A stretch of 64,000 nucleotides of DNA, taken from Psammoneis japonica (Eukaryota). The DNA lies in assembly GCA_008632985.1 (NCBI GenBank), contig QPGO01000033.1, forward strand, positions 62,001 through 126,000, given 5' to 3'. Position 1 is the first letter of the stretch. Each line of letters starts with the position of its first letter. The notes under the pieces are model-generated. The model had not been told where the DNA came from. It saw only the letters and a program-made list of their open reading frames with translations, and ran no database searches. Below are positions 4,501-59,376 of this stretch, piece after piece. Both the position numbers and the translations under genes were made by a program.

Positions 4501-5990
4501 TGGCTGCTTTTGTCAAGTTTGCTGCTCTCCCTGGCCCGGCCCACCATCTCTGTCACAATCACCAGCAGCAAGTTGTTGCCAATGTTCCCTCTGATGTGCA
4601 GGTTTTCCTGCCCTCTCTCCTCCTGTCTTTGCCAACCAGCCTCCCCTCTTCACTCCTTCTCCCGCCACTTCCAGAGCTCCTGCCTTGCTTCTGATGACTG
4701 CATCATTGTGGCCCAGTGCAAACTCTGTCTCCCAAGAATTCCTCTTCCTTCCCTCACTGGCACACCCTGTTCCTGTGGTCACACCTTCCTCAACCCTTGT
4801 GGTGATTGTGCATTCTCTTGCCAGTGTGAGGCCACACAAATCAAGACTCTCTGATGGCCATGTGGCCCCCCTTGCTGAGCTCTGTTGTTCCTCCAATGAT
4901 GCTCACATTGAGCCTGCAAATCTGCTTGCCACCAGCCCGCTTCTCAGTCCAGCCAATGTTGGCATTTCTGTGCCACCTCCAGCTTCTCTTTCCAGTCCCT
5001 CCTGCCACCACTGCATTGCTGTTGATGTCACCATTCTCCAAGCTCCTTGCCCTCCTCCTGGTCTGCCTGCTCCCTTTTCTCCTTTTTTTTCACTTGGGCA
5101 CACCACTCAAGCACAAGACCAAAGTTTCTTGGACCTTCCAACTCTTCTCTGCTGATGGACCCCCTTGTTGTTGCTTCTCTGCTCAACAACAATGGCATCT
5201 TCCTTCTTCCCTTTGCCATTGATCACATTGGTGACCTTGTGGCTTCTTTTGCCATTGATTTCTCTTCAGCTCTTTGCTCTCCTCTGCCTGCTTCCAGCCC
5301 AAGCCTCTCCGGTCTTCCTCCTCTGACCTTTGCAGGCCACTCTGATGCTTTCCATTCTGCCTTTCTCTGCACCCTGACATCTCTGCTCACCCTTCTCTTT
5401 CTTCTGCTGATTTTGCCTGGAATTGCCTTTCCAGTGACTGTTTTGGCAGCATGCATCATTCTGCCTCTCCTTCCCAATGGGCCATCCAAACACTTGGCCA
5501 CAGCCTCGCTTGCTGTCTTTCCATGCATGCCCTTTGCTCTCCTGCTCCCTCTGCCAAATGTCCTGCAAGCTGCACTCTGCGCACCCTTCCTGCTCTTCTG
5601 CTGCTGCAGCTGCTTCTCTGTGCCTCCTTTTGCTGTTCCCTTTTGATCTCAACAGGCTTTTCAACTCTGTGCTTGGCTCAAAGTGGCCCCAAATTGTGTG
5701 CCACAGGGCATTTCAGAGGCAGAAAGCCAGGTCAAAGGGAGCCCCGCGTGTGGCGGCCGAGCTGCAAACCAAGATGCAGCTTGGAGACTGCTTTCTTGCT
5801 TCTCTGCTCTCTGCTCTGGAGCAGGACCCAGACAGCCAGCTGCTGCAGAGGAAACTGATGCATGCATTGCTTTGTGCCGCAGGGCCCAGCCCAGCTGTTC
5901 ACAGCCCCACAGCTGGATGGCTGGTCTGCCTGCCTGCGCCTGCCTGGGCGCCGCCTGCGCCTGCCTGGAGGATGGACGATCCATTGGCAC
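1600..5990 (+). mobile_element. Decayed repeat block containing a non-LTR retrotransposon (RT plus restriction-like endonuclease, CRE-like) at about 2600-5700
   Basis: Remnant motifs on + strand: LLPDDQFGICVKGGLD (~3480-3525), QEEGIAQG*PLGP (~3650-3690), CIND for YIDD (3786-3797), GICFFGQPL, zinc knuckle CSCG..LNPCGD..F.C (~4770-4825), PANVG...IAVDVTI and LLPFAIDH. Block is nearly devoid of TpA and CpG. Boundaries approximate. Confidence 0.7.
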
Positions 5991-6040
5991 ACCTTCCTAT
6001 GATTGATCAAAGCGGAGGGGGCGACGTCAGCAATGAGGAA

Positions 6041-6305: not shown

Positions 6306-8205
6306 ATGAAGCTTTCTAACGGAAGAATGCGAGTGGCCATTGGCGTTTCTGCGTCGATGGCGCTTGTCACGCAAGCTTTTGTGGCACGGCCATTCGCGTC
6401 ACCTGGTTTTGTTTGTGATCGCTCGCCGTTGAAGCTTTCGAGCAACCCTTTCGTTGGATATCAGCCGCAAACTCGCACCGATGTTTCCAACGATCTTCCA
6501 AAGCTCGACAGGAATCCATTTGGTGGGTATCAACCATCGTCGCCCATGGAAGTTGTGTCCACAGAGTCGACCGCCGACCTTGCTAGCCTTGAGAAAGAGT
6601 ACGAAAACCTGAAGAAAGGATCAATGAGCATTCAGATTGAGCTGAGGGGCGAAATTGTTGATCTGAAGGAAGAACTGAGGTAAGCATTCCCGACCTACGT
6701 TTTACTTTTTTGCGGTGTTATCGACTGTTCCAATTTGATGGTGTGATATATGCTAACGTTCTCGCGCTTTTTTATCGTGCGATTCTAGAAAGCAATCTTC
6801 GTTTCTTAACTTGCAGATAGAGCAGTTAAACGATCAATTGAAGATTTCCGAATCAGAGTTAGACAGGACGAAGAGAAACTTTGATGCCGTTATAGCAGCA
6901 ACGGAGTCGAAGCTTAAGAAGGAAAACATGGATCTTGCCCGCCACCGAGACGAGCTTCTCGCTCAAGTACAAGATTTAGATGAATACAAAGACTATGTAG
7001 CCTTTGCAGAGAAGAAAGATGCTGAGCTCCGACAGATCATTGGGGAAATCAGGAAGGAACGAGACGAATTTCGAGCAAAGATAGAGTTGTTGGAAGAAAC
7101 CGAAAAGCTTCTTGCAGAAGCAGGAAAGAGAGAAGCAGAGCTTCGTAAGGAGCTGGAGGAAACTGCGAGGGCCCGTGATGAGGCTTTGAAGCAAACGAAG
7201 GATCTTCAGGCTATGGTAGAGGCCGAGAAGGCAGACTTCCGCAAGGTAAACGAGGCGATCATGGAAGAACGTAACGAGTTTCATGCTCAGCTCAAGATAC
7301 TGCAAGAGACAAAAGACATGCTTGCCGCTGCGAAGAAAAGAGAGACCGATCTTCTGCAACAAATTGAGAACGATAAGTCTGAGTCATTGCGGAAAACGAA
7401 TGAGCTTCAGGCTACGGTGGACAGGACGAAAGAAGAGTTCCGCATGGTCAACGAGGCCATAATCCAGGAACGCAGAGACTTTGAAACGCAACTAGAAGCA
7501 CTGCAAAAGACAAAAGATCTTCTTGCTGCATCCGTTAAGAAGGAAGAAGAGCTTCGTCAGCAAATGCAAAGAGACCAAGCTGAATCTTCGAAGCAGAGTG
7601 GTTACCTCAAGGCGGCTGCAGAAGCCACGAAGGAGGACTTCCGAAAGGTTAACGAGGCTATCATCCAGGAACGGAAAGAATTTGCTGTTCAGTTGGAGGC
7701 TCTCCAGAAAACGAAAGACCAGCTTGCATCTGCGGAGCAACGAGAAGTTGACCTTCAGCAGAAACTCCAGGCGATGGAACGTGAACGGGATCAGTCTCTG
7801 CAAGAGTCAAAAGAACTCCAGGCTACTGTGGAAGCAACAAGAGCAGAATTCCGACAGGTGAACGAGGCCATCATCAAGGAACGTCAAGAGTACCAACAGA
7901 AGATTCAGTTGCTGCAGAAGGCGAATGATGAGCTCACCAGTAAGGAAAAGAGAGAAGCAGAGCTCCGCAAGGAAATGGAAGGAGAGATAGGAGACCTCAA
8001 GGCTGCTGCTGAGAAACGGGATGCAGAGCTTCGTCGTTTGAATGATGAGATTGCTAAGGAACGCAGTGAGTTCCAAACTCAGGTACAGGCTTTGCACATG
8101 TCGAAGGATCTCTTGCGGCTTTCAGAAAAGAGAGAAACTGAGCTTCGCAGGGACATGATGGCTATGGCTAAGGAACGAAATGAGTTTTTGAAGTCCTTGG
8201 TATAG
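6306..8205 (+). CDS. Long coiled-coil repeat protein, probably plastid-targeted (paralog 1); intron 6680-6788
   Basis: ORFs 6306-6683 and 6811-8205 join in frame over a GT-AG intron. Signal peptide ends TQA-FVARP; GYQP repeats; 67-70 aa repeats containing (D/E)FRxVNEAIxxER. Confidence 0.8.
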
Positions 8206-11434: not shown

Positions 11435-13740
11435 ATGAAGCTTTCCCAACGCGCACTTCATGCGGTGATTGGCGTGTCGGCCACAATGACTTTGAGCGTC
11501 GACGGGTTTGTGGTACGGCCGTTTTCCTCGCCGAATACAGTCAGCCATGGCGCTGCATTAAAAGTGACAAATAGTCCCTTTACGGGGTACCAACCGTCGG
11601 CACCTGGAGGAGAAGCTGGTGTTCCTCCGCAAGCCACGAACGACCAGTTTGCCGGGTACCAGCCGACGGCGGCAGCCTCGAGTATGGAAACATCCATCAA
11701 TAATCCACAAGCCACCCAAGCTACGAATGATCCCTTTGCCGGATATCAGCCTGCGGCTCCTGCTCCACAAGCGACCCAGGATACCTTTGCTGGATACCAG
11801 CCACCACCACCACAACAACCCCCGGTGGAGGCCTCCACCAACACTGCTTCTCAACAAGTCAGCAACGATTCAGTCGAGGACCTATTGAATCTTGAGAAGG
11901 AGTATGAGACTCTGAAACAAGGGTCGAGGAATATTCAGATTCAGTTGAGAGCTGAAATCGTTGAACTGAAGGACCAACTCAGGTATGTCTGTTGTGTAGT
12001 TGACATGTGGATTTGTGTACTAGTAACATTCTCGTTCGCTAACATACCGCTCTCTATTTGCTTCGCCCCGTCCATAGAAAGCAAGCATCGACTTTGAATT
12101 ATCAAGTTGAGGACTTGCAGGAACAGCTGCAGGCAGCTGAAGCGGAGTTGGAGACGACGACGAAAAAGTTCAAGGCTGTCGGATTGGCGGTTGAAGCAAA
12201 ACTCATGAAAGAGAACGCTGCTGTGACTGAGGAACGCGACGAGTTGCTTGAAAAGATTAAGGAGATGGAGGAGATGCAAGACTACATTGCTTTTGCCGAG
12301 AAGCGAGATGCCGAGCTTCGCCAGGTGATTGAGACCGTCACCAAGGAACGCGACGAGTTTGGAGCAAAGCTCAAGGTGCTTGAGGAAACCGAGAGACTTC
12401 TCGCTGCGGCTGGTACCAAGGAAGCAGAGCTCAGGAATGAGTTGGCGGAAATGGCCAAGGCCCGAGATGCAGCCTTGACGGAGACGAGAGACCTCCAGGC
12501 TACCGTGGAAGCAACAAAGGCAGACTTCCGCAAGGTGAACGACGCTATTATTCAGGAACGTCTTGAATTTCAGACGCAGCTCAACTTGCTGCAGGAGACG
12601 AAGGAACTCCTTGCTGCTTCGAAGCAACGAGAAGCTGACCTTGTCCAGGAAATGGAAGCTGAGCGTGCCCAAGCTTTGCAAAAGACAGACGAGCTTCAGG
12701 CTACCGTGGATAGAACTAAGGCGGAGTTCCAGCAAGTCAACGATGCTATCATTAAGGAGCGTCAAGAGTTTGAAGAGCAACTAGCAGGGCTCCAGAAGAC
12801 TAAAGATCTCCTTGCCGCCTCCGTCAAGAAGGAAGAAGAACTAAGGCAACAAATAGAGAGAGATCAGGCTGAAGCGGCCCAGCAGCATGGTGTCCTCAAG
12901 GCAGCGGCCGAGGCCACCAAGGAAGATTTCCGCAGAGTGAACGAAGAGATCATCAAGGAACGTAAAGAATTTGCCGCTCAGTTGGAGGCCCTTCAGAAAA
13001 CAAAAGACCTGTTGGCTTCTGCAGAACAACGAGAGCTTCAACTTAAGCAGCAACTCCAGACTTTGGAAAGTGAACGAGATCAGACACTAAAGGAGAATAA
13101 GGAGCTGCAGGCTAGTGCCGAGAAAATGAGAGCTGAATTCCAACAGGTGAATGACGCCATCATTCAGGAGCGTAAGGAGTTCCACGAGAAGATCCAGGTG
13201 CTACAAAAGGCAAACGACGATCTATCGAGTAAGGAAAAGAGAGAAGTTGAGCTGCTGAATGCCAAGCAAATTGAGCTTGATGCTGCGCTGAATGAGAATG
13301 TCTTCCTCAAGGCGGAAGCGGAGCAGCGGGACGCAGAGCTGCGCAAGTTGAACGCAGAGATTGCCCAGGAACGCAACGACTTCCAGACTCAGATGCAGGC
13401 GTTGCAAATGTCAAAGGATCTCTTGAACATGGCAGAAAAGAGGGAAGCCGACCTCCGCCAAGACTTGAAGGTCATGTCCAAGGAACGGAGTGAGTTGCTC
13501 CGTGAGCTACAGACAAAAGAAGAAAAGGACAAGGAGATTTCTCTCAGCTTGAAACAGCGTTTGGAGCAGGAACACACTGAGCGCATGAAACTCGAGCTGC
13601 AAGTCAGCGCTATCGATCGCCAAACCAATACTCGCCGAAGGAGGAAGAAGTCTCGCCTAGCACAACTCTTTGTGGGAAGTCGTGTCAACGGGTTGTCAGA
13701 TGAGCTGAGTAAGTTGACCAGGAGCAAGCAGCATCCGTGA
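11435..13740 (+). CDS. Long coiled-coil repeat protein, probably plastid-targeted (paralog 2); intron 11983-12077
   Basis: Clear paralog of 6306-8205 with the same intron position and phase (LR/KQ), signal peptide ending VDG-FVVRP, four GYQP repeats and the same 67/67/70-aa repeat spacing. Confidence 0.82.
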
Positions 13741-27379: not shown

Positions 27380-28600
27380 ATGTCACCGAATGTGGTTTAA
27401 ACCAGACATTTAGTTTGCGTTGTTTCCCCTTTCCATTCAAGAACTTGGTCGTGAATGGCAATTCTGAGACATGACTCTGAAGACAGTGTGAAAGGGGCGT
27501 CTTGTGACACGAAAAAACAGCTCATCACAATCACACATAAAGAAAAAGAGAAGCACGAGTCATTCCACCAAAATGTTTCCCAATGCCCCCAAGCTCCAGC
27601 AAATGACAATGGGATGGGGCATTTGGTCTGCCAGTTGAGCACAAATGTTCACCACTTTGCATTTTGCCCACACAACAAAAAGAACAGAGGTGGATGTGAA
27701 CACTGCTGCAAACTGCCATGCTTGAGATGCAGCCAGCCCCTTCCAGCGGCACAACATGTGACCAGCGGATCACGCAAAACAACAACACCGTGGTTCTTGA
27801 ATTGCCCACACAAATGGTCATGTCATTGTTTGATTTCAAATTCTGTGCAATCATGAAAAAAGCAAATTTGCGGGCATGGCAATGCCCAGCAGCTGTCAAA
27901 AGATGTTGCGCACCCAACCTTTCATTGCAGTTGGACCCAGCTTGCACAAAGGACAGCTGGCAATTGGAGGAGGGAGGGGCCACAATGAAGGGGCAGCAGC
28001 AGCCAGGGATGACTTTGCTGCACTGCCTGCAACCTGGGCATGTGAGCCACCCCCAAGCCAGCATCAAAATCGCTGTCTGCTCCTCTCTGCTTCTGACACA
28101 TGCAGTCAAACACACTGTCAGATGTGCAAGAAGCTGTGGCTGTGTCAAGTGCTTGTCTGTGAAACAAGTGAGAAGAGTTGCGTGAACTCTGTCTGCAGAT
28201 CTGCAGGGTGTGAACCTCCTCGATGCACCTGCCAATGCACACAGCAGTGCAGGACGACACTGCTCAACCACAAACCTTGGTGCCAGCCCAATTTTTTATG
28301 ACCATTTTTGTCAATTACATGCAAGTCACTGTGCATGAAATGCCACCCATGCTGGGAGTGACAGCTGGCCCTGCTCCTGCACGACAAGCTGCAGAGAGCT
28401 GAGCCACGAGAGGGGCCAGGCAAAAAGAAGAGACATTGTGCTCATTTCTCTGAGCTGTGTCTCCCTCTCCTGGCAGGATGAGAGATCATGCCAGTGACAA
28501 TGCTCCTCCTCTCAGTGCATCCTGCTGGGTTCATCCCTGCTCAAGTTGGTGCTGTTTGAGCAGGTGGAGGCAGAGCAGAAGCGGGCAAATGCCCAGGTGA
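27380..28600. mobile_element. Decayed TpA/CpG-depleted repeat fragment, family not identified
   Basis: Same compositional signature as the identified transposon blocks; only overlapping Cys/His-rich, Tyr-poor ORFs. Confidence 0.5.
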
Positions 28601-28766
28601 CGGTTGGACGCACGGACGAAACGACGTCTAGAGAGTCCGTCCGTCTATCACGCGGAACGACAGCCACACGAGATGATGCTTTCTGCGCGACGAGGAAAAA
28701 AGCCGAAACAAAAAACGCACATCACACACATCAGACAACAAAGAGCAGTATAGTAGGCAATACATA

Positions 28767-38799: not shown

Positions 38800-41700
38800 C
38801 AATCACAAAGCACCTCCTTAAGATGCCCCACAGAAGCCTGAACTGTCCATCATTGTTGATTTTTGGAATGGCTTGAGTGCAAGATTGTGATGGAAAGCTG
38901 AGCGAGTGACACCGGTGTCTCATTTCATCGTCATCATCAAGTGGAGCTTTTCACACAGAGCATCTGTTTCACATTCATTGAGAGGTCTCACCAATGATGT
39001 GGCAACTTTGTGTGCTCCAAACAGCACTTGGGAACACTGCAACAATGGACGGTGGTGTGCCAGGGGCAACAGAGTCTGTTGTCTCTTCTGCCCCTCAAGC
39101 AGAGCTGCTCTCTCCCACAACAAGCTGGGGGAAGGCATGCCAAGAGATGGCTGGGGTGTGGCCTCAGCTGGAGAGTGCAAAGTTGAGCCATGGAAGCAGC
39201 CAGAGTGCAAACAATTTGGCAATCCATCTTTGCTGGCATTTGTGGCAAAAACTTCTTCCTCCTGCACAGAGCTGCCTCATCAGCAGAGTGCCTGCCGGTG
39301 GCAGCAATTTGCAGGAGCAGTCTTTTGTCTGAAGAAGGAGTGCTCCTTTTCTGACTTGTCTGCAAGGTCAGCAAAAGAGCTCCTCACTCTTTTCTCTGCA
39401 CGACTGCCTCAACTTCAACAACTGCTGGGTCTGCTCTTTCTCTGTGTGAGGGCCTTTGCTGCCACATCACAAGAAAGCTCAGCTGGGCTGCCAATGACAG
39501 GTGTGCCATCATCAACCCTCCACAGCTGCCACTTTCCTGCTCAATCATTGGCCCAGGCCAGACAACAAATTCATGCTCAACATCAAGACATGAGGCCACT
39601 TTTGCAAGGCTGTTGTGCCTTTTCACACTCAAAATGTTGGAAAATCAATTTGCGTGGTTGTGGGCTGAAGGTGCCACAGAGAATGGCTGCAACTGCTGCA
39701 CAAAAAAGTGCAAAAAGTTGTTGAGATGAGCTTCTGGCCAGCAGCTCAACAAATGCACCACCAAGCCAACACACAAAACAAGTCCATAATCATGCACAAA
39801 TGTGTGTGAATTTTGTGCACCAAGATGTCATTAAAAAATGTGAAATGTTGCAATTTTTTGCTGTGAGTTCCCACCCAGAGCTGTGGCTTGTCTGTTTTTC
39901 TTTCTGCTTTGCTTGTTGCTTGGCACTCTCCTGCAGCCCAATGGGGACTTTGTCTTGCTGGTCAGCTCCCCTGTCACATTTTCTTCTTTTTTCTTGTTGC
40001 AGTGGCAGCTCTGACTCTCTTGGCAGCACTGCTCTTTCCACCTTGGCTCTCACTGGCTGTCATTTTTTTCATCACATTGTTCAGCAGAGTTGAAGGTGCC
40101 CTGTGTGGGCAAGCTTTTCTTTGTCATCATTGTGCTGTTGTTTGGGTTGACAAGTTCCACTTTGATGATTTCATTGTGTCAGCAGTGCTGTGATTTTTCA
40201 TCTTTTTGTGTCATTGGCCAGGCATGGCAGCTCCCATTGACAGCTTTCATCATTGCATCATTTTCAACTTCTGGAGCTGACAGGTCTTGCTTCTCCTTGC
40301 CAGCAGTTTTTAAATTTTGAGCCCAAATTGCACCCGTGTGCAGCTGCTCCTTGCCCACCCAGCACCAAAGCTGTGCTTTTGTCCTTTGCATGCATTGCCA
40401 CCTCAGAAAGCAGCAGCACTTGGCTTCCATCGGCTCCCTTTGACTGACCAACACTGCACCCTCCAGCCAGCCAGCTTGAGGCAAATTTCTCTGTTGTGAT
40501 GTGTTTTTTCTCAGTTGGCTGTGCTGGCTCTGAATGATCTGGAAACCCAACACTGCCAGAGAAACCATTGCCACCATCTGCAATCTGCAACATCAGATCC
40601 ACAAGCAAAACAACTGCAATTTTTAAACATGTGACCAGCTTCTTCACACAGCTGCCACAATTGTTTGACAAGAACAATGACGATGTTGTTGGGCAAAGAG
40701 CAATCACAGATCTTGTTGGGCAGGAGCAAGAGCTTCTCTGTGGCAGAGAGTTGCACCACACAGACAGAAAAGCTGTCAGGTTTGAGCTGGGTCACTCTGG
40801 CAAAGTTGTTGGCACTGCCCACCTCTTTGCACAAGACATTGCGTGCACTTTTTTCAAGTTTTGGCTTTGCAGCAAGCAAAAATGACATTCTCAAATGATC
40901 TTGAGTGTGCAAGTTGCAAGCAAATGCCCAAGCTAGACATGTGTGGGAGAAAGAGCTTTTTTGGGCATTTTCCATCTAGAGGAGACCCCAATGATCAGCT
41001 GATCTTTAACGCATGGCTTCACACTGGCTGCCACACACAAACAATCAGCTCCTCTCTTCAAACAATCAGCTCCTCCTCTCTTGCTCTTTGCAAGTCCTGC
41101 AGTCTCTGTGTCATCATGGCACACAACATCAAGAGGTTGAAAATGGCAAAGTTGTCTCCACAAGCAGAATGTCACAGAGCTGGAGCAAGACAAAAGAGTC
41201 AGACTCTGGTGCAATTGGATGGCAAAACTCAAAAAGGCAAGCAATCACCTCAGGGGGTGTGGTGTCCTGCAAAACCTTGTCCCAACTCTGGAAGTGAAGA
41301 AGACATGTGAATCTGTCAAGTCTTCCATCAAAAAGTGCAAAGTTGCCCTTCTTGATTGTTTGGACAAGCTTCAGTGAAAGAGTTGTGCTGAGACTGTGCA
41401 CACTGCCTTTCACACTTTCCTGCAGTTTGCTGTTTGGGCACCACTCCAGTTTGTGAGCACACAGGGAAAAGTTTGAGCGGCCTCACAACAACTCTTCATT
41501 CAGGGCTTTTGTGTTGCACTTTGCAGTGCAAGCCCATTGGCTCTCCTCTTTTCACACCAGGTTGAGCTCCAACAAACTGTTGGTGCATTCCAGCCCTGGG
41601 TGGAACTCCATGTGACATGGGCCCACAGAATTCTGTGCACAAGCTCCACAGATCACATGCTGGACAATGAAGAACACATTTGTCTTTGATGTCTGAACAA

Positions 41701-42480
41701 ATGGCCAAGTTGGCGGGCAGTGCATGCATGCCTTGCAGCACTCTGAGTTTTTGAAAGTCTGTCTGCCCTGCTCAATTCTGCAGACATTCAAGAATCACAT
41801 TGTGGGAAAAAGTGACAAAAGCCAACAATTGAGCTGCAAAATGTTGCCAAAGTCATGACAAAAAATGTCAACAATGCCACAGTCCAGGGGCACAAGGCTC
41901 CACCCAGACCTGGCATGCATCTGTTTCCTGTGCCATCTGCTGTGGGATGCATTGACAATCTAAATTTTTCAGACTGGACCCTCCGTGGCACATGAGAAAT
42001 GCTTGGTCAAGGTCCATGCCCACCACCTGCTCGTTTTTGCCCTGGTCTAAATGCCAGACCACACGAGGACATCAAATTGGGTTTGGCAAGAGTAAAAAAG
42101 GTTTTTGCTGCTCTTGTTTGGCACAAAAAATGCCACAGTGAGTGCTGTTCCACATGACCATTCCCTTGGACACACATCTTGAGTGACAAACTCTTCACGA
42201 CCGCTGTGCTTGGACAGACAAATCTCAGCTGGAACAACTGCACACCACTGTTTGAACTTGGTGAGAATGCATCCTTCAATTCATTGTCGTGCTCATCATC
42301 ATTCAAGGAAGAAATCTTTTTGGCTTGAAAATGCGCCTCGCAGAGGAGTGCAAAGTCCGCAGCTGTTGGAATGGGATCATTCGACTCTGTCATTGCGATT
42401 GGCATTTGTGATTTTTTTGGCTGGCTGATGCTGGGCGGGTGAGGAGTGCCACAAGCAAAACTTCCGATCGATCAAGCAAA
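38800..42480. mobile_element. Decayed TpA/CpG-depleted repeat block, family not identified
   Basis: Only about ten TA dinucleotides seen by eye in ~3.7 kb, few CpG, strong TG/CA excess, many overlapping Tyr-free ORFs. Confidence 0.55.
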
Positions 42481-42558
42481 AAAAAAAAATTGTCTTTTTT
42501 CTAACACTGTCATTGCTAATTGTGAGGAAAACTGTGTTAGGTAACGCCGCGCTCCTGT

Positions 42559-48399: not shown

Positions 48400-51300
48400 A
48401 TTCTAAGCACCAATGCCAAATTTGCTGCTTACTTTTTTGTTTGCTGCTTCCTCCATTTTTGAATCCGTTTGCATTCTGCTTTGCGACTTCACCAACTTTG
48501 GAGTTGATTGTCTCGGCAACAACATGCTATCGACTGGCATGCCAAGCACAGCTTGAGAGCTGCTACATCATTGCGCACAGCATAAAACTTTGTTGGATCT
48601 TCTATTTGCTTTTGTGCTGGTGCATTGGCCTCGTCGTTAAAACCAAATTGGAAGTCTTTCGACATCCATTTGGAAGCAACCTTGGAATTCCTGTCTCAGG
48701 TCGATGAAATGCAAGGTGGAGTGCAGAGCGTGTACACATTCAATTCTAAATAAGCAGGTTGACAAGACTGGTGGCATTGGACTTTGCACAGGCTTCTGAA
48801 TTCAACATCTCCCACCACATTTTGTCAAGTGATGTGAGAACAGTGGTGTTGACGTGATCAACACTTCCTTGTCATCTTCATGCACTGAAAATTTGCTGCA
48901 AAGTTGCAACATTTTCATGGCATGTTGTCATGTCCCACCAGCATCTTCTGGAGGTGGAGCACCAGACCCATCAAACAGACATGCCATGGATGCATCCTTT
49001 GGAACTTCTCTTTGACATTTCCCAACAACAAGTTGCACAACTCCGCCAATGTCTCCAAAGTCATTCACGCATTGAAGGAACATTTTGCCACCACTGTTTG
49101 CCTCTGAAACAAGTCCTGCAGCTTGATTGCTTTGTGGTCATTTGCGAATGCCCCACCTGTGTGGCATGCCCTGCTTGGCATGCCAGCAAACACCAAGAAG
49201 CACCTCAGCCATCTTTGAAATGCATCAAAGCACACAGCATGCAAGCTCAGATCAGGAGACACAAGAGTTTCATGCTTGGTCTTGGTTTGATGCCATCAAC
49301 TCAGCAGGTGCCATTCATTTGCCCACTTCTTTTTTTTTTTGCTGGACTTGACATTGTCAAGCTAAAACACAGACTTTCTTTGCCACCCGCTTTGCAGATG
49401 TTTCAGAGGTCCATTTTTGCCTCTTGACTCATGACTTGATGATGTGAGTGCATCACCATTGTGTGCTCATCCAAAGTTTTTGCTGTTTTGAAATGAGCAG
49501 AGCTTGGACATTGCATGCAAATGCTTGGAAATGCAGGCAACTGTCTGTTGGAGCTTGTGTTGAAAAAGAGTTCAGGTGTTGTTAGCCTGCTGTGTTTCAA
49601 GATGTCAAATTTTCAACAGCAGTGAGATTTGAGAGCTTTCTGATGCAACTGTTGGCCCCAGTCTCATCCAAGGGAAGACACATTTGCAACGATGACTCTC
49701 CTTGTTCTTCAACCAGATGCTGCAGGAGCGTCCAATTGCTCCATTCAAATTTGTGTCTTCTGGCCCGCACAGTTTCTAACACCAAGCAAAAACACACCTC
49801 ATCAATTGGCCCTGTCAAGTCACTCAGCATGTGTCTTAAAAACCTTCAGCAAGTGCCAAGCAGGCCAGTGAGCAGAGCATTCATGAAAGTGGAGCCACGT
49901 TGATGGAGGAGACCAAAGGTTCATTCAATGAACCAAGTGAAAAGAGCTGCCAAGCCCAGCTCTTTCCAAGAAAATTGATTTTTTACAGAACATGTCTTTG
50001 CAACATCAGAGCAAAAACAATCTCTTGCATGTCAGTCAATCACTTTGGTGCCCCTTCATTTGAGTTTCGTTGAGTCAGAACCAGCGGTGCTTTTGGCAGC
50101 AGGCAGCCCAAAGTGACATGAAATGACAAGGAACAATTGCTTTGGAAAAAAATGCTGGCACAAAGATGAAACTGCCCACCTCACATGCAGCAGCAGATCC
50201 ACCTTGTCCATTTTGTCACCCTGGTTTTGGCAGTTTGGAATGCACCCATCACATGTCCCAAGCAAAGCTGGTGCACTTTTTTTCACCCCCAGGAGCACCC
50301 AGGTGTTCAGATGCATGTTGCAACACAACAATTGCTTGTGCAGTGAAAAAGTTGGTGCACAGGTCTCTTGTTTTGTCTCCATGCAGGTCAGTCATCTCTG
50401 CTGTGGCAGAACACCCACCACAGATTGCAGCTGCAGAGGACTTTTGGTTTTGACCCTCTCCCAAAGAGCAGAAGGAGAGCACAATGTTTTCTGAGGCCAA
50501 AAGTCTTGCTGGCTCCAACAACAGGAAGATTGCTCAGCTCTTTTCAGCTTTGCAACCATCAAAATCACCCGTTGAAAATGATCTAAGCTGCACCCTTTTT
50601 GATGTCATCAGAGGAGTGCATCACCCTTGAGCACAAGCAGCTTCTTCCAATGAGCAGCCCCCCACATTTTTGATGGCAACAGCACCTCTTGTCATGAGGC
50701 CTGTCTCAAGCACAGACCATCTCAAGTTTGACAAATTTGGGCAGTCCAACGATGTTGCCCCGTGTTTCTTGCCACACTGAAAGGTGGCATTGACCATGAC
50801 ACATGCTTCAGAAATGCCCGCCAATGATTGTGGCAACTTTGATGCAAACAAGATTCCATCCATGCCCATCAGCCCACAACAATTTTTTTTTCTCCTGCAC
50901 TGGCTGCTCAAGTTCTTCACCTGATGTGGTGAAAATGCTGCCCCTGCCGTGGAGCTTGCGTGCAAGTGTTTGCTTGGATGAACCATTGGCACTGCTTGAC
51001 GGTCATTCATTTGCTGCATGGATCAACATTTCTGCGCAAAATTCAGCATCAATTTCCATGTGAAAGAAACATTTCTTCCAATGTCCTTCTTCTCAACACA
51101 TGTGTCACTGAGGCTCCTTGTTTCACACCTGCAAGTCCTGAACACTTCTTTTTCTGCTTGCTGTCCTGCCAAGATTGCAGCTCTAAGTGGCAGACTGTTT
51201 GCTTTTGTTCCAGTGCACACAAATTTGAAATTCAGCCAGTCTTTGTGGAAGACAAGACTCGTCCATGGAAGCAAGGTTTTTCTTCCAGAGAGAGTTTGCG

Positions 51301-51560
51301 CTGACTTTGAATCCTCTTCTTAACATGATTGTCCTTTGCTGTGGCAGTTTGGGGGCTTTGCATCCTCTTCAAAAGAAAGCAACAACTTCATTCTTGTGCA
51401 ATTTGTCCTCAACCTGTTGTCTCCGGTGCGCATTGCTGCAAAGAGTGACGTGTTGACTGGCTGATCACATGAACTTCTGCCGCACACCCTGTTCAGGGTG
51501 TGCTGGGGGCAAAGGTGCAATGGCATTAAAAATTGGGTTTAAGTTTTCAACTCAGGCAGT
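48400..51560. mobile_element. Decayed TpA/CpG-depleted repeat block, possibly a Mutator-like DNA transposon on the - strand
   Basis: Compositional signature is clear. Family assignment rests only on VNATFQCG (possible VDATF) near 50780 and is weak. Confidence 0.45.
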
Positions 51561-51575
51561 GCACTGGGGAACAAT

Positions 51576-52340
51576 CTACAAGGTTTTCCACAAATTTGCA
51601 TGAGAGGTGAGCACATTTTTGTCACCACAAACAGGCAAAATGTTGACAGTCATGAGGAGAGCGAACTTCGTCTGCTTGGTGGTGGTGTGGGTGCTGGCAT
51701 GGTGTGCCTCGGCAAAAGGGTTAAGATTGGGGGCAGGCAAACCATGAGCTGGGAGGGGAGGTGGTTCAGGAACGGTGACATTGACGGCGCCAGGTGGTTG
51801 CAACCTGCAGGGGTGAAGCAGTTCTGCCACCGCAACATGGTGATCAAGCATTCCTGCATTCTCTTGATGGTCGGAGTCAGACATCGCCCCAGACCAAAGT
51901 TCCCAGTTCCCCTGCCATCCACAAGTTTGAAGGAAGACAGCACCCTTCGCAACGCATGCATTGCAGCAGTGGGAAAACAATGCACGATTTATGTCAGTGT
52001 GCAATGAGTCTCCACATGGCACATTTGTGTCATCCCAAAATGTGGCTCGTCTGTCACCAAACTTCTTTGCCCATTTTTCCAGTCGGAAAGCAATGTCCTC
52101 GTCGTACGATGCAAAATGTGGACACCGCAACAACAACGTTTGTTTGATTTTTCTGAGCTTGTGATCGATGATGCTGGCAATTGTTCGTCTGCTCTTCACT
52201 TTGCAAGTCACAATCAAAGCTTCCATTGTCATGTTTGTTCGACACCAAACCCACTCGAAGCAGCAGAACCACTCTTCAAACCACGTGAGAGACGATGTTC
52301 GGTCCATCATTTCATCAACCGAACCATCACACACAACCAA
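51576..52340 (-). pseudogene. PIF/Harbinger-ISL2EU-type DDE transposase remnant (DDE_Tnp_4-like), C-terminally truncated
   Basis: TWFEEWF, FWDDTNVP, RALFSHCCNACVAKGAVFLQTCGW, ELWSGAMSDSDH; expected Tyr residues read Cys/His. Confidence 0.65.
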
Positions 52341-53425
52341 AAAACAAACGACACCAACAAAAATAGAGAATCGTGTCCGGTGCGAACTTTTACCTCTGAA
52401 TCACCAAGAGCCTCTAGATGGACTGTTGGTGGTGGCTGCGCCGGCGGAGCAGTCTTTTTCGACACGGGCGCACTTGGTCTCGCATTCGACACGGTCACCG
52501 TTGTTGTCAATTGCATTGCAAGGTTCGCACAGCCAAGCATCCACCAGCACAGCCAGTTCCTGCTTGGCTCTCATCAGCTCCAAACCATCTCTTGATTTCC
52601 TTCCAGACCTCTCATGAGCAAGCGACAGCAACAATCTTCCGCATCGGTCGTGATCTGTGGCAACGTCCTTTTTTGTCAAATCCGTGACATTCTTTGAACC
52701 AAGACCTGAAGTGCCGCCAAGCAGCGTCACAGCCAAGCGCAAGTCCCAACAAAACACAAAATCTGGGATCCAACTCCTTGTCAATGATGGGGTGCTTTGC
52801 TTCTTGAATTTGCGAGTCTTTCAATTCATCAGAATCATTCACAACATGCAACAGCATGCTCTTAAATCCGCTTTCCACGGTGATGTCTTTTGTGGCGTTC
52901 TCCGATGGCACAAACGACACTGTCTGGAGAGCACGCTCTCCACAAATGAGTGAAAAAACTGAATCATTTCTCAACACAATCTGGGCTTCACAACGGCGAA
53001 CTAAGTTGCAAACAACCGAGTCCGCCTGGAAGTCTCACGTCATACAAAGAACCGAGGTCGACAGCTGAGATTGAGACACTTCCTTGACGACACGCAAGCA
53101 AAAGTCTCGAGGAAGCTTCTTTGATCCCTGTGTTTCACAAGACTTTACTCCTGATTGGAGAATTTTCTGCTTTCCCAATAAATGTGTCCGACACGCCTCC
53201 ATGACATCTTGCTTCCGGAGTTCTGATGTGATCTCTGAGGTTTCAAGCCTTGCGTGGCACGCTTTGGCGCGAGCCGTCTCCCTCTCCCCAGCCTGCTTGA
53301 TTGATGCAACTTTTACATGATGACGACTGTCAGGGTCAAATGCCATTGTTACACAAATGCCGGCGTTCACAAGTGACGTGACAACCGACACAGTGTGTGC
53401 AACAGCATCGCCGCCAGAGGAGCAA

Positions 53426-53701
53426 TGACAGGATTTGAACAGGATTTGGATGCGCGCGAAGCATCGCGCGCTGTTTAGTTTACCGCGCACAGTTTTGTGT
53501 GCTTTAGTTCCGCGCGTTCACGCGTGATGTAGTTTGCTTTCGAGCCACAAGGCTCACAAGAATAACAACAGTAGCCCGATTATGCCGACTTACACGTCTT
53601 TCGGCTCCTGCAACGGTCTCTGAACGGAGACTCATCTGCTGTTTAGACAGCAGCAAGGAGTCATTGTTTGAATTCTTGCCATTTGCCTTCAATTTCTGTC
53701 A
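53426..53701. repeat. Left LTR (276 bp)
   Basis: 268 of 276 positions identical to 58647-58922 by manual alignment, no gaps. Confidence 0.95.
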
Positions 53702-53716
53702 GATTAACAGTCTTGT
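53702..53716 (+). other. Putative primer binding site complementary to the anticodon arm of tRNA-Asn(GUU)
   Basis: GATTAACAGTCTTG abuts the LTR; its reverse complement CAAGA-CTGTTAA-TC has the form of an anticodon stem plus canonical CU-GUU-AA loop. Confidence 0.6.
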
Positions 53717-56700
53717 GACATGGCGTGTTTGCAGTTCCGGGGAACTTCGTATCCGCACTTGCAGCGAGGTGCAGTGCGGAAGGAGCGAAGCTTGGCTTGG
53801 TTGGCCATGCGAAATGGCTTCTTTTGGCGCCTCGCGATGGTGCGGAACCGCTTCCAGCCATCCGTGTCGAGGAGTCCGTTCTCTCGTGCATAGATGGCAC
53901 AGGTGACGGGTCGTCCTTGGCGATGATGGCAAGAGGCTCGGACGTGATCTCCCCACTTTCCCATTCAAGCATGATGTTGTAGCTTGAGCCTTTCCAGGTT
54001 GGGTCGTGAGGCTTCAGAGGTCCTTCGTGTGACACGATGCGTCGAAATTTCCAAATGGTGGTGTCTTCGTCTTCTTGCTCAATGTGATTCATGATGTCAT
54101 TGCAGGCAAGGACTTCCTCGTATTCGTCATTGTTGACAGAGCAGACGAACTTAGTGAGCTCGGGATTGCCGTTCACTTTCCATTTGTGGTCTTCGACGGC
54201 CTTGACGATGCGAGCTCTGTGGCGTTGTCCGTCCTCTTGTGGCTGCATGAGGAAGGTGCGTCCAATGATGTCTTGCGGATCAAAAACTGGCATCTTGGGT
54301 GTCCTGATCTCCCCATCAGGAGAATCGACGGGGTTGTCGTCATGGCGAGATTTGATGATGGGTTCAGGTGGCTCCCCATCAGGAGGATCAAGACGCAGGT
54401 TTCGAACGGCAGGATCGGGGGCAGCGGAGCGAACGTTGGACCGGTGGAGGATCTTCTGAGTCTCGTCAGATAGAATCTTGAAGGTCATCTGGTGGCCGAC
54501 GTGCTCAGCAATGCCAACGAAGCGTCCACGCAACTCACGGGATTCGGACGGCCAATCGGAGTCATCGAGGTGGAAGCACACTGGTTCCCACCAGTGAAAG
54601 CGAAGCAATGGGCTGATGTCCGGGGTGGATCCAGTGAGAGTCTCGAGGGGCGTGCGCCAGTGGAGACGTGGGGACGCTGTGTGGTTGAGTGTGAAGCACA
54701 CGTGCATGAGCGCCAGCAGCCATGTGTGGGCGGGCGAACCAAAACGGTCCATGACAGTGTTCGCCATGCGCTTCACAGTCTGGCATCGACGCTCGGCAAA
54801 GTTTTGGTGTTGCTGGTGAGGCTCACTTTGCCAGCTGGAGATGAAGAGGGCGCGTAGGATCCCGAGCACTTTGTTGCTGATCTCAACTTGAGCACGGTCG
54901 CTAATGAGTTTGGATGGGGCACCACGTTCACGGATCTGATCCTCGAGTGTGTTGACAAACTCTTTGTCCGTCTTAGTGCCGTAGACGTCAGTGACGGTAG
55001 ACTCGGTGCCAACAAACAGTTGGGCGCTGGTGCAACCAGAGTCGACGGCCGGGGTGTCGGCATGAACGGTGTCAGTGGCGACAGGCTCATTGCGACAGTG
55101 CACATTAAGGGCGGGGTTGGGTGATTTGAAGGCCTTGCGAAGGTGTGCACCGGCGGGCATGCGGGCGTACTGCGTGGTGCAGTCAAAAGTGCGACGGACC
55201 GTGTCGGCAGGTAGGAAGCCAAAGCAAGGCCGAAGAGACTCGAAGGGGGGGTCCTTGGGCTGTACAGTGCGCTCCGGAGGTGGAACGTCATCGCCCTTGG
55301 GGTCAATCGCATGCAGATGACACTCGTAGAACACGTCGTTGTTCGGAATGAGGTGATCATCGAGGGCGGACGCGTGATCGGCAGACAAGGAAGCGGACAA
55401 GATGGTCTCGTTGACAACGACACGGTGACGGCAGTTGCCGCATTCGTCAAACAGGTTGGCAGTGGGATCGTCCTGTAGGTCAGAGATCGCGTCGTACCAC
55501 TGGTCGTCGTCAGTGACAGAGTGATCGAGGACGGAAGGGTCCCATGTGTCATCACCGGTGAGGATGACATGGGGCAGGGTGTCCCATTCGGCGTCAGTGT
55601 AAGGTCGCATGGCAACATGAGGCAGGCCAGCCTTGATGTCAATGGGGATGACATAGCCATCAGGAGTGGCAACACGTTGCAAGCCATTGGGCACCTTGAC
55701 AGAGCGATCGTTGACATCCTGTTTGTACCATTCGAGCTGGCCGCAGGAATGGATGGTCTTGCCCTTGCCCGTGTGTGCGCACTGATGGAGGATGGCGATG
55801 ACGGGACCACGCTGGGTCTCAATGACGGCACCAGCGGTGACAATGGGGATGTCCACCAATTGATGATCGTCAATGCCCTGAACGTCGACTTGGCGAGAGG
55901 TGCGTGCAATGACGCGAACGTCGTCGCCAGCAATGCCGCCGTTGGCCCCACGATCGACGAGAGCGCCAGTGCGTGTGGAGCGATGAGCAGAGGCAGAGCA
56001 AATGACATTGTGGTTGTCAACGCGGCAGCAAGTGCGGCCGTTAAGTTCCATGTCATCTGCAGAAGCTGGCGGGGTAGAGGAAGCGGCGGATGGCCCCGGT
56101 CGACTGGCATTGGGGGCTTGGTTAGGAGACAACAGACGTTGCAGATCACCGGGTGGCAGTGGCTTGCGCTTGGTGAGGTGCACCAGGATGGGATTATCCG
56201 AAGTGGCGTCCACATGTGGAGCGGAGTCACCAGAGTCAGCAGGAGTCGTGTTGGACAAGTTGACATCACCGTCACTCCCAAGGCGTTGGTCGTGAAGGTT
56301 GGCCATAACAGACTCATGGCAGTTGCTGGCTCGCGGGTTGCGGGGAGGCGGACGAGAATGCTCAAGGATGATCGCCTTGGAGGAATCGGGCAACGAATCC
56401 CAGAGCCATTGGTGGTCGGGAGGGAGACGTCTCCATTGGACACCGGTGAGGCTGGGACCGCGGGTGCAGGCAGCATTGGCTTGAAGGACGTCAACGTCGC
56501 TGTCAATGTCGCAGAACACATCGTCGGACGGTTCCTCGGAGTAGACGTCGTGTGCGTGTGTGGCGCGTCGGGGAGCTCGAGGTGTCGTCTTGGGTTGAAA
56601 CGTGCTGTCGTGCTGAGCTGCCGCGGAGAGGAGCAAGCCACAGCATTGATCGTATGTGAGGCTCTTGCCACTCTGCGTACGATGCTGATCAGCTTGGTTC

Positions 56701-57650
56701 TTGACAGCACGGAGTTCCTCGACAGGGTGCACGGCATTCTCGAGCATGACGCGCTTCTGTCCTTCAGAAAAGTGGTCACTGGCCGGGATGAGTGCCTCAT
56801 GCTTGCGCAACTGATCTTGCCAATGAAGGATGAACCCGTGGGTCGGACCTTTCCAAGTGCCATCACCAAGACGTGCGGTGGTGAGGCACGTGAGCAGGGT
56901 GGAGGACTCGACAGATGCGCGGGTGGAGGCAAGCGCGCACTCAGACAAGGAGCGGCAGACGGTCTGTGCGTCAGAAGACCCCACATTTTCGCGAATGAGA
57001 GCCTTGCCCTTGTCGGTGAGAAGGATGCGTTCGAAGACGGCGAACATGTACTTTTGCTGTTCAGCAAAGAGCAGTTTGTCTTCGGGGCTGGTCGGTTTGT
57101 ACGACGAGTCTAGAATGCACTCGACGTCTTGGGCACGGGCTTGTGCCACAAGTGAGGTGTGCCAAGTGTGCCACTGCTTGTCGGATTTGAGAGCCGTGAA
57201 AGCGGTGGGATCACGCTTGATGCCTCGCTTGAAGTCCCGCACCGGGTCGCGTGCCTTGGTCGGGTTGGTGACATGTGGAGGTGCAAGGGGTGAGCTGCCG
57301 ATGGACACAGAAGACATGCAGTCGGGGCTGAGGCGGCAGGCAAGGAACTCGTCATGCGTGAACAAGGAGGAGTCGTTGGCAACGTCAAGACCTTTGTGTG
57401 CTTTGACAATGTACAGACTGACTGGTGCTGCTAACATGTTCTTATAACCACGGGGCAAAGGGATTGCATTGGTGCCGTTGTCGTGCTCAAGCGAGTCGAT
57501 TTGGGACGGTATGAACGTGAACAGTTCCTGATGCGAGTCCGTGCCGTCTTGGGCCAAAGCCAAACGAAGAGGACTCCCAGCACCTTGGGCAAGCACGGTT
57601 CCAACAACGTGCTCGAAACCATCGGTTTGTTGCTGACGAGTGAGAACCAT
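53704..57650 (-). pseudogene. Copia gag-protease-integrase polyprotein, frameshift near 53908, truncated at the start of RT
   Basis: FKRGIKRDP, protease ALVDRGANGG, integrase VATDTVHADTP / LISDRAQVE / QNFAERR, GSTPDISPLLRF, then TCAIYARENGLLD..GWKRF...GYEVPRN. Confidence 0.9.
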
Positions 57651-57722
57651 GGTAGACAAAAGTGGTGTCAGGACAATCAATTCTGGTTGGGAAGCGAAGG
57701 CAGACTCGAAACTTGGGTGAGA

Positions 57723-57754
57723 ATAGACTTGACTTGAAACAGACTTGACTTGAA
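57723..57754. repeat. 16-bp tandem duplication in the gag leader
   Basis: ATAGACTTGACTTGAA followed by ACAGACTTGACTTGAA. Confidence 0.85.
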
Positions 57755-58639
57755 ATCTTGAACTATCTTAAAATCAGAAGTCGCCGGGCTTTGTTGTCCC
57801 GTTCGTTGTCAAGTGCTAAACTTCCCATCCGGTCCGTAGAGTTGTGCCGGCACGTCCGAACCCGCAGCTGGTGGCGCTTTGGGTTGCTTGCAAGCGGAGT
57901 AGCGGGTTGTAAACCCCTGCAGGTAAGCTGACTAGAGGTGGACAAGACCCCCGAACCGTTCTTGTTTTGTGTCGGTTGGATTTCCCGATCAGGCTGGCCA
58001 GTTGACGCAGGCGTTGGGCGCTGTGGACGAACGAACAAACGCGGGAAAACACCCTTGCCCCAACGCAGGCTGTAATCACGGCCACTTGCTCTCACAGTCA
58101 TCCTCGTGGACCCAGTGGAACTGCAGAGCACCAGTGGTCCGGGGCAGATCAGGTGCAATGGACTCGGTGTGCTTGTAGAGTGGCAGCAAAACCGCAGTCC
58201 GAAGAGTGGATAAAGGTTCTTGGCCGTGGAGATGTGCACATGTGCACACATGTCTTCAGCGACTAAGATCCTTGAACATGTGGGGTTCTTGACCGTTAAC
58301 CGAGGAACAGGTGTGTCAAGGGATGTTGATCAAGGATGGACTTGGATGTGACCGTTGAACACAAGTCTTCAGCGATCAAAGGCAGTGTGATCAATCCAGA
58401 CATCCAGCGGCAAGGAGACTTGATGGTGACGTTAACTTCCTGCCGATGCCCTGGCATTGAATGCGCGTAGACTTGCCGATGCATGTAGAACACACACGGA
58501 GGTCCACGTAGAATTGAAGTGGCGTCGTTGGCAAATCAACGACGACGATGGCGGTTGCTCAATGGGTTGACAATGAGCAAGACTGTTGGCTTCATTCCAT
58601 CCGAAGTCGAATCTGTTTCTGTGGCTCCTCAAGCAAACT

Positions 58640-58646
58640 GGGGGAG
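58640..58646 (+). other. Putative polypurine tract
   Basis: GGGGGAG immediately before the right LTR. Confidence 0.55.
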
Positions 58647-58922
58647 TGACAGGATTTGAACAGGATTTGGATGCGCGCGAAGTATCGCGCGCTGTTTAGT
58701 TTACCGCGCACAGTTTTGTGTGCTTTAGTTCCGCGCGTTCACGCGTGATGCAGTTTGCTTTCGAGCCACAAGGCTCACAAGAATGACAACAGTGGCCCGA
58801 TTGTGCCGACTCACACGTCTTTCGGCTCCTGCAACGGTCTCTGAACGGAGACTCATCTGCTGTTTAGACAGCAGCAAGGAGTTGTTGTTTGAATTCTTGC
58901 CATTTGCCTTCAATTTCTGTCA
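58647..58922. repeat. Right LTR (276 bp)
   Basis: Direct repeat of 53426-53701, followed by TSD AGCAA. Confidence 0.95.
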
Positions 58923-59376
58923 AGCAAGGCCCCTGAGACCGATCCAACTCGAGTCGACAGCGATGGTTGGTGGACCATCACATTGACAAACCTCCAACAG
59001 ATGCTTTGCAGCATTTAGAATGTTTACAATGGACAAGGAGGCGATGCTATGGAGGACCGCACCGCCGCCTTGAAAACCCATCGTGTTGATTGATGCACAG
59101 AAAAAAGTGCTGTTTTGAGAGCGTGCAACAAACATCAACACGAAACTCGGTACAAATCGTCGTGCAAAGCTACATACGCAAAACCACGTGGAAATCCATT
59201 TTTGTACCACGCCACCAAAACTGGAAAATCGCATTACCCATGCGCGCGCAGACGGACGGACACAGGCGCCGCACGTGCGTCGTCCCGCCCGCTCCGGGAG
59301 AGTGCTACCGGTCATTGAGCAGTCCGAGCATCGAACGAAAGATATGTCGAACATAGCAGCATTTACATCATGAACT

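Follow-up and report, generated by a model that had tools for sequence, protein, structure and literature searches.

Loss of TpA steps and tyrosine codons in a Copia retrotransposon and neighbouring tracts of Psammoneis japonica

The rewriting of invading DNA at TpA steps is already known from one case, that of Bigelowiella natans, which was described in 2026. According to the preprint on its mutation-accumulation lines (Mettrop et al., bioRxiv 10.64898/2026.01.13.699255, April 2026), two integrated viral regions received 231 of the 302 new mutations. With few exceptions these were A>G or T>C changes, every one of which lay at TpA, and they arose at about 6e-7 per site per generation, roughly 1000x the background. 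The preprint also reports that hypermutation occurred in only some of the lines and that genes poor in TpA showed an enrichment of reverse-transcriptase and DDE domains, and its authors propose an ADAT2-like DNA adenine deaminase. Here we examine a 64,000-nt stretch of Psammoneis japonica DNA (QPGO01000033.1, positions 62,001-126,000), referred to below as the window, whose positions serve as coordinates throughout. The window holds a Ty1/Copia long terminal repeat (LTR) retrotransposon without reverse transcriptase (RT), located on the minus strand at 53426-58922 (5497 bp), and four further TA-poor tracts, T1 to T4. A preliminary description of this DNA had claimed that tyrosines of Copia motifs read as cysteine or histidine, and had ascribed this to a mutator that changes TA to TG or CA on both strands. 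The comparisons below bear out the replacement itself, and they make it probable that a TpA-specific, DNA-level process restricted to insertions is responsible. What is new is that such damage has been worked out on an LTR retrotransposon, the first case of its kind.

The proposed process would act only on 5'-TA-3' steps, changing A:T to G:C on either strand so that TA becomes TG or CA. It would target integrated mobile DNA, spare the neighbouring host DNA and proceed far faster than other substitutions, and in older insertions, whose CpG has likewise decayed, it would run to completion. Tyrosine codons are TAY, and the change of TA to TG or CA would therefore yield cysteine (TGY) or histidine (CAY). 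The RT-less Copia copy would be a young and insertion-polymorphic target of this process.

The Copia polyprotein lies in a minus-strand open reading frame (ORF) of 1339 codons at 53661-57680. Its relatives comprise 899 proteins at E <= 0.001, with a best identity of 63% among the best 120 of the 899, and these 120 homologues were used to compare composition. The ORF contains 1.12% tyrosine and the homologues 3.79 +/- 0.40% (minimum 2.83), while cysteine accounts for 2.17% against 0.95 +/- 0.25% (maximum 1.87) and histidine for 4.56% against 3.53 +/- 0.42%. An alignment with 50 of the 120, near-full-length and picked by hand, was scored over residues 1-1262 at consensus levels of at least 50% and at least 80%. 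At the lower level 556 of 711 columns are kept (78%) as compared with 9 of 36 tyrosine columns, and the 27 tyrosine changes consist of 11 Cys, 10 His, 4 Phe, 1 Leu and 1 Trp, so that 21 go to Cys or His. At the higher level the corresponding figures are 331 of 368 columns and 4 of 17 tyrosines (7 Cys, 3 His, 3 Phe). Fisher tests of tyrosine against overall retention gave p = 3e-12 and p = 2e-11, respectively. The next-worst residue with more than 10 columns is isoleucine (68% kept), and lower values on few columns were found for cysteine (2/5) and methionine (5/8). In a profile test free of the query, the ORF keeps 5 of 22 conserved tyrosines (9 Cys, 5 His, 3 Phe) versus 91% of other conserved residues. 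Tyrosine loss therefore exceeds that of other residues, as the preliminary description had anticipated. The observation it named as contrary evidence, homologues carrying the same Cys and His, is nearly absent for cysteine, which a single sequence of the 50 carries, at one of the 11 Y>C columns; histidine is natural at 7 of the 10 Y>H columns, in 2-16 of the 50 sequences each.

Most of the tyrosine motifs called earlier in the main frame match the consensus of the relatives (HQYAYxGKG, GLPY, FDEFGNYRxR, DTVYSD, ERRYQTVK, PAYTWLLCLxYV and EPVYY). Two do not mark consensus-tyrosine sites, since at the Cys of RPCFG no residue reaches a majority in the consensus, and at the His of ILHRS half of the homologues have tyrosine and 16 of 50 have histidine. 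PRCKCGYE and PRNCKH sit in a second frame, at 53910..53702.

The damage arises in the DNA and concerns a dinucleotide; it is not specific to tyrosine. In the ORF the observed/expected ratio (o/e) is 0.21 for TA, 0.95 for CG, 1.51 for CA, 1.31 for TG and 1.24 for TC. TA is lost in all codon phases, with o/e values of 0.25, 0.24 and 0.18 in phases 1-2, 2-3 and 3-1, whereas 44 homologue ORFs of at least 1000 codons show 0.65 +/- 0.08, 0.61 +/- 0.15 and 0.72 +/- 0.12. Across codon borders TA has been removed by silent T>C changes, as judged from the rarity of T before A-starting codons: among kept residues T precedes 4 of 121 such codons, with C before 90, while T precedes 72 of 194 G-starting codons. 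Taken together with the LTR comparison described below, these counts support the dinucleotide specificity of the change. Its polarity is indicated by the protein relatives, up to 50 of 50 of which have tyrosine where this copy has cysteine or histidine, and related DNA loci (n = 80) have a TA o/e of 0.62 +/- 0.14. The TA steps that survive in the element offer a weak lead: they are poor in A/T flanks, ATAT accounts for 0 of 71, CTAC and CTAA are common, and 12% of flanking bases are A versus 27% in the background (hand count), which may reflect a flank preference of the process.

This polarity sets the locus apart from repeat-induced point mutation (RIP) of ascomycetes. RIP resembles the present pattern in that it makes transitions at one dinucleotide on both strands, is confined to repeated or mobile DNA and can cause the two LTRs of one element to diverge. 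It creates stop codons and lowers GC content. According to PMC2621366, RIP changes C:G to T:A mainly at CpA and thereby creates TpA. Here the direction is opposite: TpA is destroyed, the tyrosines of 50 relatives are Cys or His, no stops are made, and GC stands at 57% in the ORF versus 48% elsewhere in the window. The host here, moreover, is no fungus.

Our leading guess at the chemistry is that adenine at TpA is deaminated to hypoxanthine in the DNA itself, and we infer that the process as a whole is a targeted, enzyme-driven defence. Because TA is self-complementary, a T>C route looks the same as A>G from sequence alone. An unlikely alternative is accordingly that the thymine of TpA is oxidised to 5-hydroxymethyl- or 5-formyluracil and mispairs with G, giving T>C. 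Oxidised thymine is mutagenic. A precedent comes from dinoflagellates, in which, according to PMC11572971, 5-hydroxymethyluracil made by a TET/JBP enzyme replaces thymine preferentially in TA and TC and marks transposable elements. TC is undepleted in the Copia ORF, however, with the o/e of 1.24 given above, and the authors of the B. natans preprint favour the adenine deaminase (10.64898/2026.01.13.699255).

The relative speed of the change can be estimated from the two LTRs, both on the minus strand. Both have TGACAG...CTGTCA termini. The 5' LTR (58647-58922) contains 5 TA and 20 CG; the 3' LTR (53426-53701) contains 9 TA and 20 CG. Each is 276 bp long, and they align with no indel and 8 base differences, all of them transitions, so that the pair is identical in purine/pyrimidine code. 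Six of the eight differences are TA in one LTR and TG or CA in the other, and the remaining two form one adjacent CA/TG pair, which two independent hits on one TA would give. Seven pyrimidine-purine sites differ in all, but none of the 20 CpG sites and none of the other ~250 positions. Since the LTRs differ only at TA/TG/CA steps, TA appears to change far faster than all else, and because the differences arose after the LTRs were copied from one template, they point to the DNA level. The insertion is bounded by the target-site duplication AGCAA on its 5' side (58923-58927) and by the same five bases on its 3' side (53421-53425). Contigs from four sequencing runs of one sample in one study (X1-X4), which may be the source sample, include one that joins 53420 to 58923 and skips 5502 bases with 5 shared letters. 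From this empty site we conclude that the insertion is polymorphic, hence young. If the B. natans rate is applied, strictly as an extrapolation, 8 hits on the 22 LTR TA site-copies would take tens of thousands of generations, and this rough age would fit a young, polymorphic insertion.

The four tracts would represent older stages. T1 (1708-5998) contains 5 TA and 38 CG, T2 (27538-28629) 3 TA and 20 CG, T3 (38819-42502), which lies with sharp edges between two host genes, 11 TA and 28 CG, and T4 (48751-52863) 18 TA and 77 CG. They consist of complex, non-repetitive sequence with a TA o/e of 0.02-0.1, a CG o/e of 0-0.33 and a CA+TG o/e of about 1.6-1.8, and each is sharply bounded, within 100 bp or less. 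TA loss amounts to 95-99% in these older tracts, and the five insertions, Copia included, span a TA o/e of 0.02-0.26. About two thirds of the TA but no CG is gone from the Copia copy, while the old tracts have lost both, which argues that CG decay is much slower and probably a separate process, e.g. deamination of methylated CpG. In a bolder version, a single enzyme deaminating both A and C would be behind the fast TA loss and the slower CG loss. Decay of methylated CpG does resemble the TA change in turning a self-complementary pyrimidine-purine step into TG or CA, and T1-T4 show CpG depletion as a second, slower change; the Copia copy, however, retains its CG, none of its LTR CpG sites differs, and cytosine deamination cannot change TA.

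A self-comparison of the window in purine/pyrimidine code revealed no kinship among T1-T4, the LTR pair being the only match. Pfam searches of 41 ORFs, including all long tract ORFs, found no family at E <= 0.01 in the tracts, whose ORFs have 0-3 tyrosines and many cysteines and histidines. T4, part of which is repeated in the sample, contains a transposase-like gene relic on the minus strand at 51579-52400 with two homologues, P0122 and P0123 (E 5e-38 and 4e-23). In P0123 the DDE_Tnp_4 model matches below threshold (E 1e-3, 19 bits versus a cut-off of 24.8), and in place of the six tyrosines that the two homologues share the relic has F, F, C, C, H and F. On this sequence evidence the relic is probably a Harbinger-like transposase unrecognised by Pfam. 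That the process would also hit a probable DNA transposon argues against a route through RNA editing.

Such a route, in which an ADAR-like activity with a 5'-U preference converts A to I during retrotransposition and reverse transcription fixes the change, seems improbable on other grounds as well. It would gain from the U that ADARs favour before the edited A (10.64898/2026.01.13.699255) and from the high repetition of the Copia family in the sample. It would yield sense-strand A>G only, whereas the 10 sense T>C changes (His) about equal the 11 A>G changes (Cys); in addition, the two LTRs of one insertion differ, and tracts without retroelement match show the same loss as the probable DNA transposon relic. 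More generally, APOBEC3 and ADAR share with the present pattern an editing-type damage of invading elements in a short context, but they act on one strand of cDNA or RNA and leave asymmetric G>A or A>G. Here both strands of resident DNA have changed, as the preliminary description had held. Strand symmetry is apparent in the Cys and His counts and in CA counts that roughly equal TG counts in every mutated tract. The Cys and His outcomes alternate along the ORF without clustering (14 runs versus about 11.5 expected, hand count), and there is no sign of processive one-strand action along it.

The restriction to insertions is shown by the host DNA between the tracts, which has a TA o/e of 0.65 outside ORFs and 0.51 within them, and a CG o/e of 1.04 outside ORFs and about 1.0 overall. 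Host DNA is thus itself moderately TA-poor, as a genome-wide neighbour-dependent bias would make it, and under such a bias no targeting would be needed, the loss being seen in transposons because they are unconstrained. We regard this as very improbable, because non-ORF host DNA is largely unconstrained and yet stays at 0.65, against 0.02-0.26 in sharply bounded tracts, and because the LTR pair differs only at TA sites and one CA/TG step while ~250 other positions are alike.

The sample contigs add a view of other copies. The Copia family is highly repeated in them, with 11,780 contig pieces on X1 and a summed contig depth of 7e4-1.8e5 versus ~63 in the flank, figures from which no copy number is claimed. 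At four leader sites (58338, 58348, 58387 and 58389) this copy has TG where other copies have TA. Separately, adjacent double changes of TG versus CA were seen between contigs and window at 51998/51999, 52352/52353, 52374/52375 and 58360/58361, a pattern expected if two alleles or copies are hit independently at one TA.

Several points weigh against a targeted process at TpA. At the four leader sites TA makes up just 9-46% of the summed contig depth; since the TG state is common to many copies, part of the damage may have come from an already mutated source copy and was not made in place. The variant evidence from the sample contigs covers 40 of 592 rows and gives no family-wide spectrum in context. 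The LTR differences are without outgroup polarisation, and the CA/TG pair could equally descend from CG. A few of the His calls may be natural variation, given the His found in relatives at 7 of 10 Y>H columns. T1-T3 have no mobile-DNA match and T4 has only the weak DDE match. Finally, the process is deduced here from sequence. The prevalence of TG where some copies keep TA could also mark the spread of TA-poor lineages, favoured because TA-free copies (UA-free RNA) escape a TA/UA-specific nuclease or silencing, but such selection is hardly credible when invariant tyrosines become Cys or His and not the conservative Phe, when the copy is also frameshifted and without RT, when non-coding LTR sites are affected differently in the two LTRs of one insertion, and when the saturated tracts have no recognisable genes.

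The TpA-specific process would leave reading frames in a peculiar state. A change of TA to TG or CA destroys TAA and TAG and cannot create a stop, so the frame stays open while missense destroys the protein. Counts over six frames agree with this and with what had been proposed earlier about inactivation by missense: the density of TAA+TAG per kb falls from 33.1 in host DNA to 14.4 in the element and to 1.6-6.8 in the saturated tracts. TGA stays at 38-51 per kb. On average 1.6-2.6 frames are open for 100 codons or more, up from 1.35, and two side frames that overlap the element measure 764 and 530 codons. The further expectation that dead copies keep long ORFs thus holds as far as TAA and TAG are concerned, but since TGA stops persist the gain in ORF length is moderate.

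Similar damage was found in other sequences. Among the best 150 representative proteins of the Copia family, 149 were scored, and 5 of the 149 public proteins are tyrosine-poor, keeping 0-17% of the conserved tyrosines with most changed to C or H. Tyrosine-poor, Cys/His-rich relics have thus been annotated as proteins, which the preliminary description had foreseen. One of these five, P0140, keeps 1 of 17 conserved tyrosines (9 Cys, 3 His) and 90% of its other conserved residues. The closest sequences by best-segment identity (62-63% at the amino acid level) are two metagenome contigs, L059 (1 TA in 1388 bp) and L072 (2 TA in 1025 bp), which have Cys, His or Phe at the same ancestral tyrosine sites, sometimes with an outcome unlike that of this copy. 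Five Copia loci from other metagenomes (L026, L029, L061, L011 and L042) have a CpG o/e of 0.05-0.24 at an ordinary TA of 0.44-0.78, and these CpG-poor, TA-normal relatives suggest that TA loss is lineage-specific within the Copia family.

Comparison with B. natans indicates a process of the same kind, here acting in what is probably another lineage and on transposons. The two share A:T>G:C changes at TpA giving TpG or CpA by strand, confinement to foreign integrated DNA, TpA depletion with CpA+TpG excess in clustered 1-kb windows, and coding sequences enriched for reverse-transcriptase and DDE domains. They differ in that the B. natans mutations were observed de novo, in giant-virus and virophage insertions of a chlorarachniophyte, whereas here the change is read from an LTR retrotransposon and other insertions. 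TA makes up 6.0% of dinucleotides there versus 3.87% in the background here, and the 95-99% TA loss of the older tracts is unlike that report. CpG, retrotransposons, tyrosine and stop codons do not appear in the text of the preprint. Our literature search returned no report of TpA erasure in diatoms or retrotransposons, and term look-ups in PMC2806351, PMC8147415, 10.1101/2025.10.24.684338, PMC9998398 and PMC9258296 were likewise without one.

We give about an even chance to the wider proposition that a TpA-editing genome defence is also at work in a distant second lineage (probably a diatom), where it would act on LTR retrotransposons and DNA transposons until every TA is erased. For the integrase part, the nearest Atlas clusters carry the label Bacillariophyta, although very few of their members are labelled. 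This label, the lower background share of TA and the uninterrupted host ORFs described below make it probable that the host is a species other than B. natans, in which case this would be a second lineage with TpA-specific rewriting of invading DNA, in which the LTRs act as an internal clock. If the proposition is true, the pathway would be widespread among marine protists and would mirror RIP, and a natural enzyme would have to exist that edits the adenine (or thymine) of chromosomal DNA. A natural A:T-editing activity of this sort would matter for genome defence and for base-editing enzymology. Practical consequences would follow for annotation, as relics stripped of TAA and TAG retain long ORFs, score under the Pfam thresholds and end up in databases as tyrosine-free, Cys/His-rich 'hypothetical proteins'. 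Insertion ages derived from LTR divergence would come out far too high in such genomes if TA sites were left unmasked.

The remaining anatomy of the element, all on the minus strand, is that of a deleted Copia copy. A TA-poor leader of ~1 kb (57681-58646) separates the 5' LTR from the polyprotein frame. The main open frame (53907-57680) encodes gag, protease and integrase, with homology to relatives from 57650, and includes the protease motif LVDRGANGG (about 55935-55961) and the integrase invariant residues D870, D928 and E963 (about 54790-55073). The 3.7-kb frame claimed earlier is indeed without a stop from 57650 to 53907 (1248 codons), although it is followed by a one-base loss that shifts the polyprotein frame (53907-53910), and the RT/RNase H part is deleted. 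Six contigs of X1, as well as X2-X4, carry an extra G behind 53907. In tblastn searches, residues 1-~1230 of the relatives match 57650..53907 and residues 1230-1296 match another frame at 53910..53710; this continuation in the shifted frame (53702-53910, approximately amino acids 1230-1296 of the relatives) contains APRCKCGYEVPRNCKH. At 53710 other copies in the sample contigs continue into unlike sequence. The stop of the shifted frame sits 9 bp ahead of the 3' LTR, the polypurine tract appears to have been lost along with the RT/RNase H part, and inspection of the element ends found no purine run directly ahead of the 3' LTR. Three full-length relatives searched against the window by tblastn gave no match beyond this element.

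Two hallmarks of Copia elements are present, namely direct LTRs with TG...CA ends and a 5-bp target-site duplication, but an integrase upstream of a Copia-type RT (RVT_2, PF07727) is not, RT being absent from this copy. The majority of near-full-length relatives measure 1850-1900 amino acids and have PF07727 downstream of the part aligned here; together with the absence of RT this leads us to read the copy as a Copia deletion derivative. A Pfam scan of the 1339-codon ORF found 0 families. Given the invariant D, D, E triad, the lack of a Pfam integrase match suggests that the current rve model does not cover the integrase of this Copia lineage. The precomputed Pfam annotation of relatives P0002-P0121 lists RVT_2 only, with gag, protease and integrase domains unlisted.

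Host DNA in the window contains ten Pfam-supported ORFs of 300-880 codons, all uninterrupted. B. natans genes are intron-rich, whereas the host ORFs here are long and without interruption. Two further ORFs on the plus strand, at 6757-8205 and 12043-13740, are paralogous and lie ~5.3 kb apart; each has four 201-bp (67-codon) tandem repeats that are 72-82% alike, with no Pfam match.

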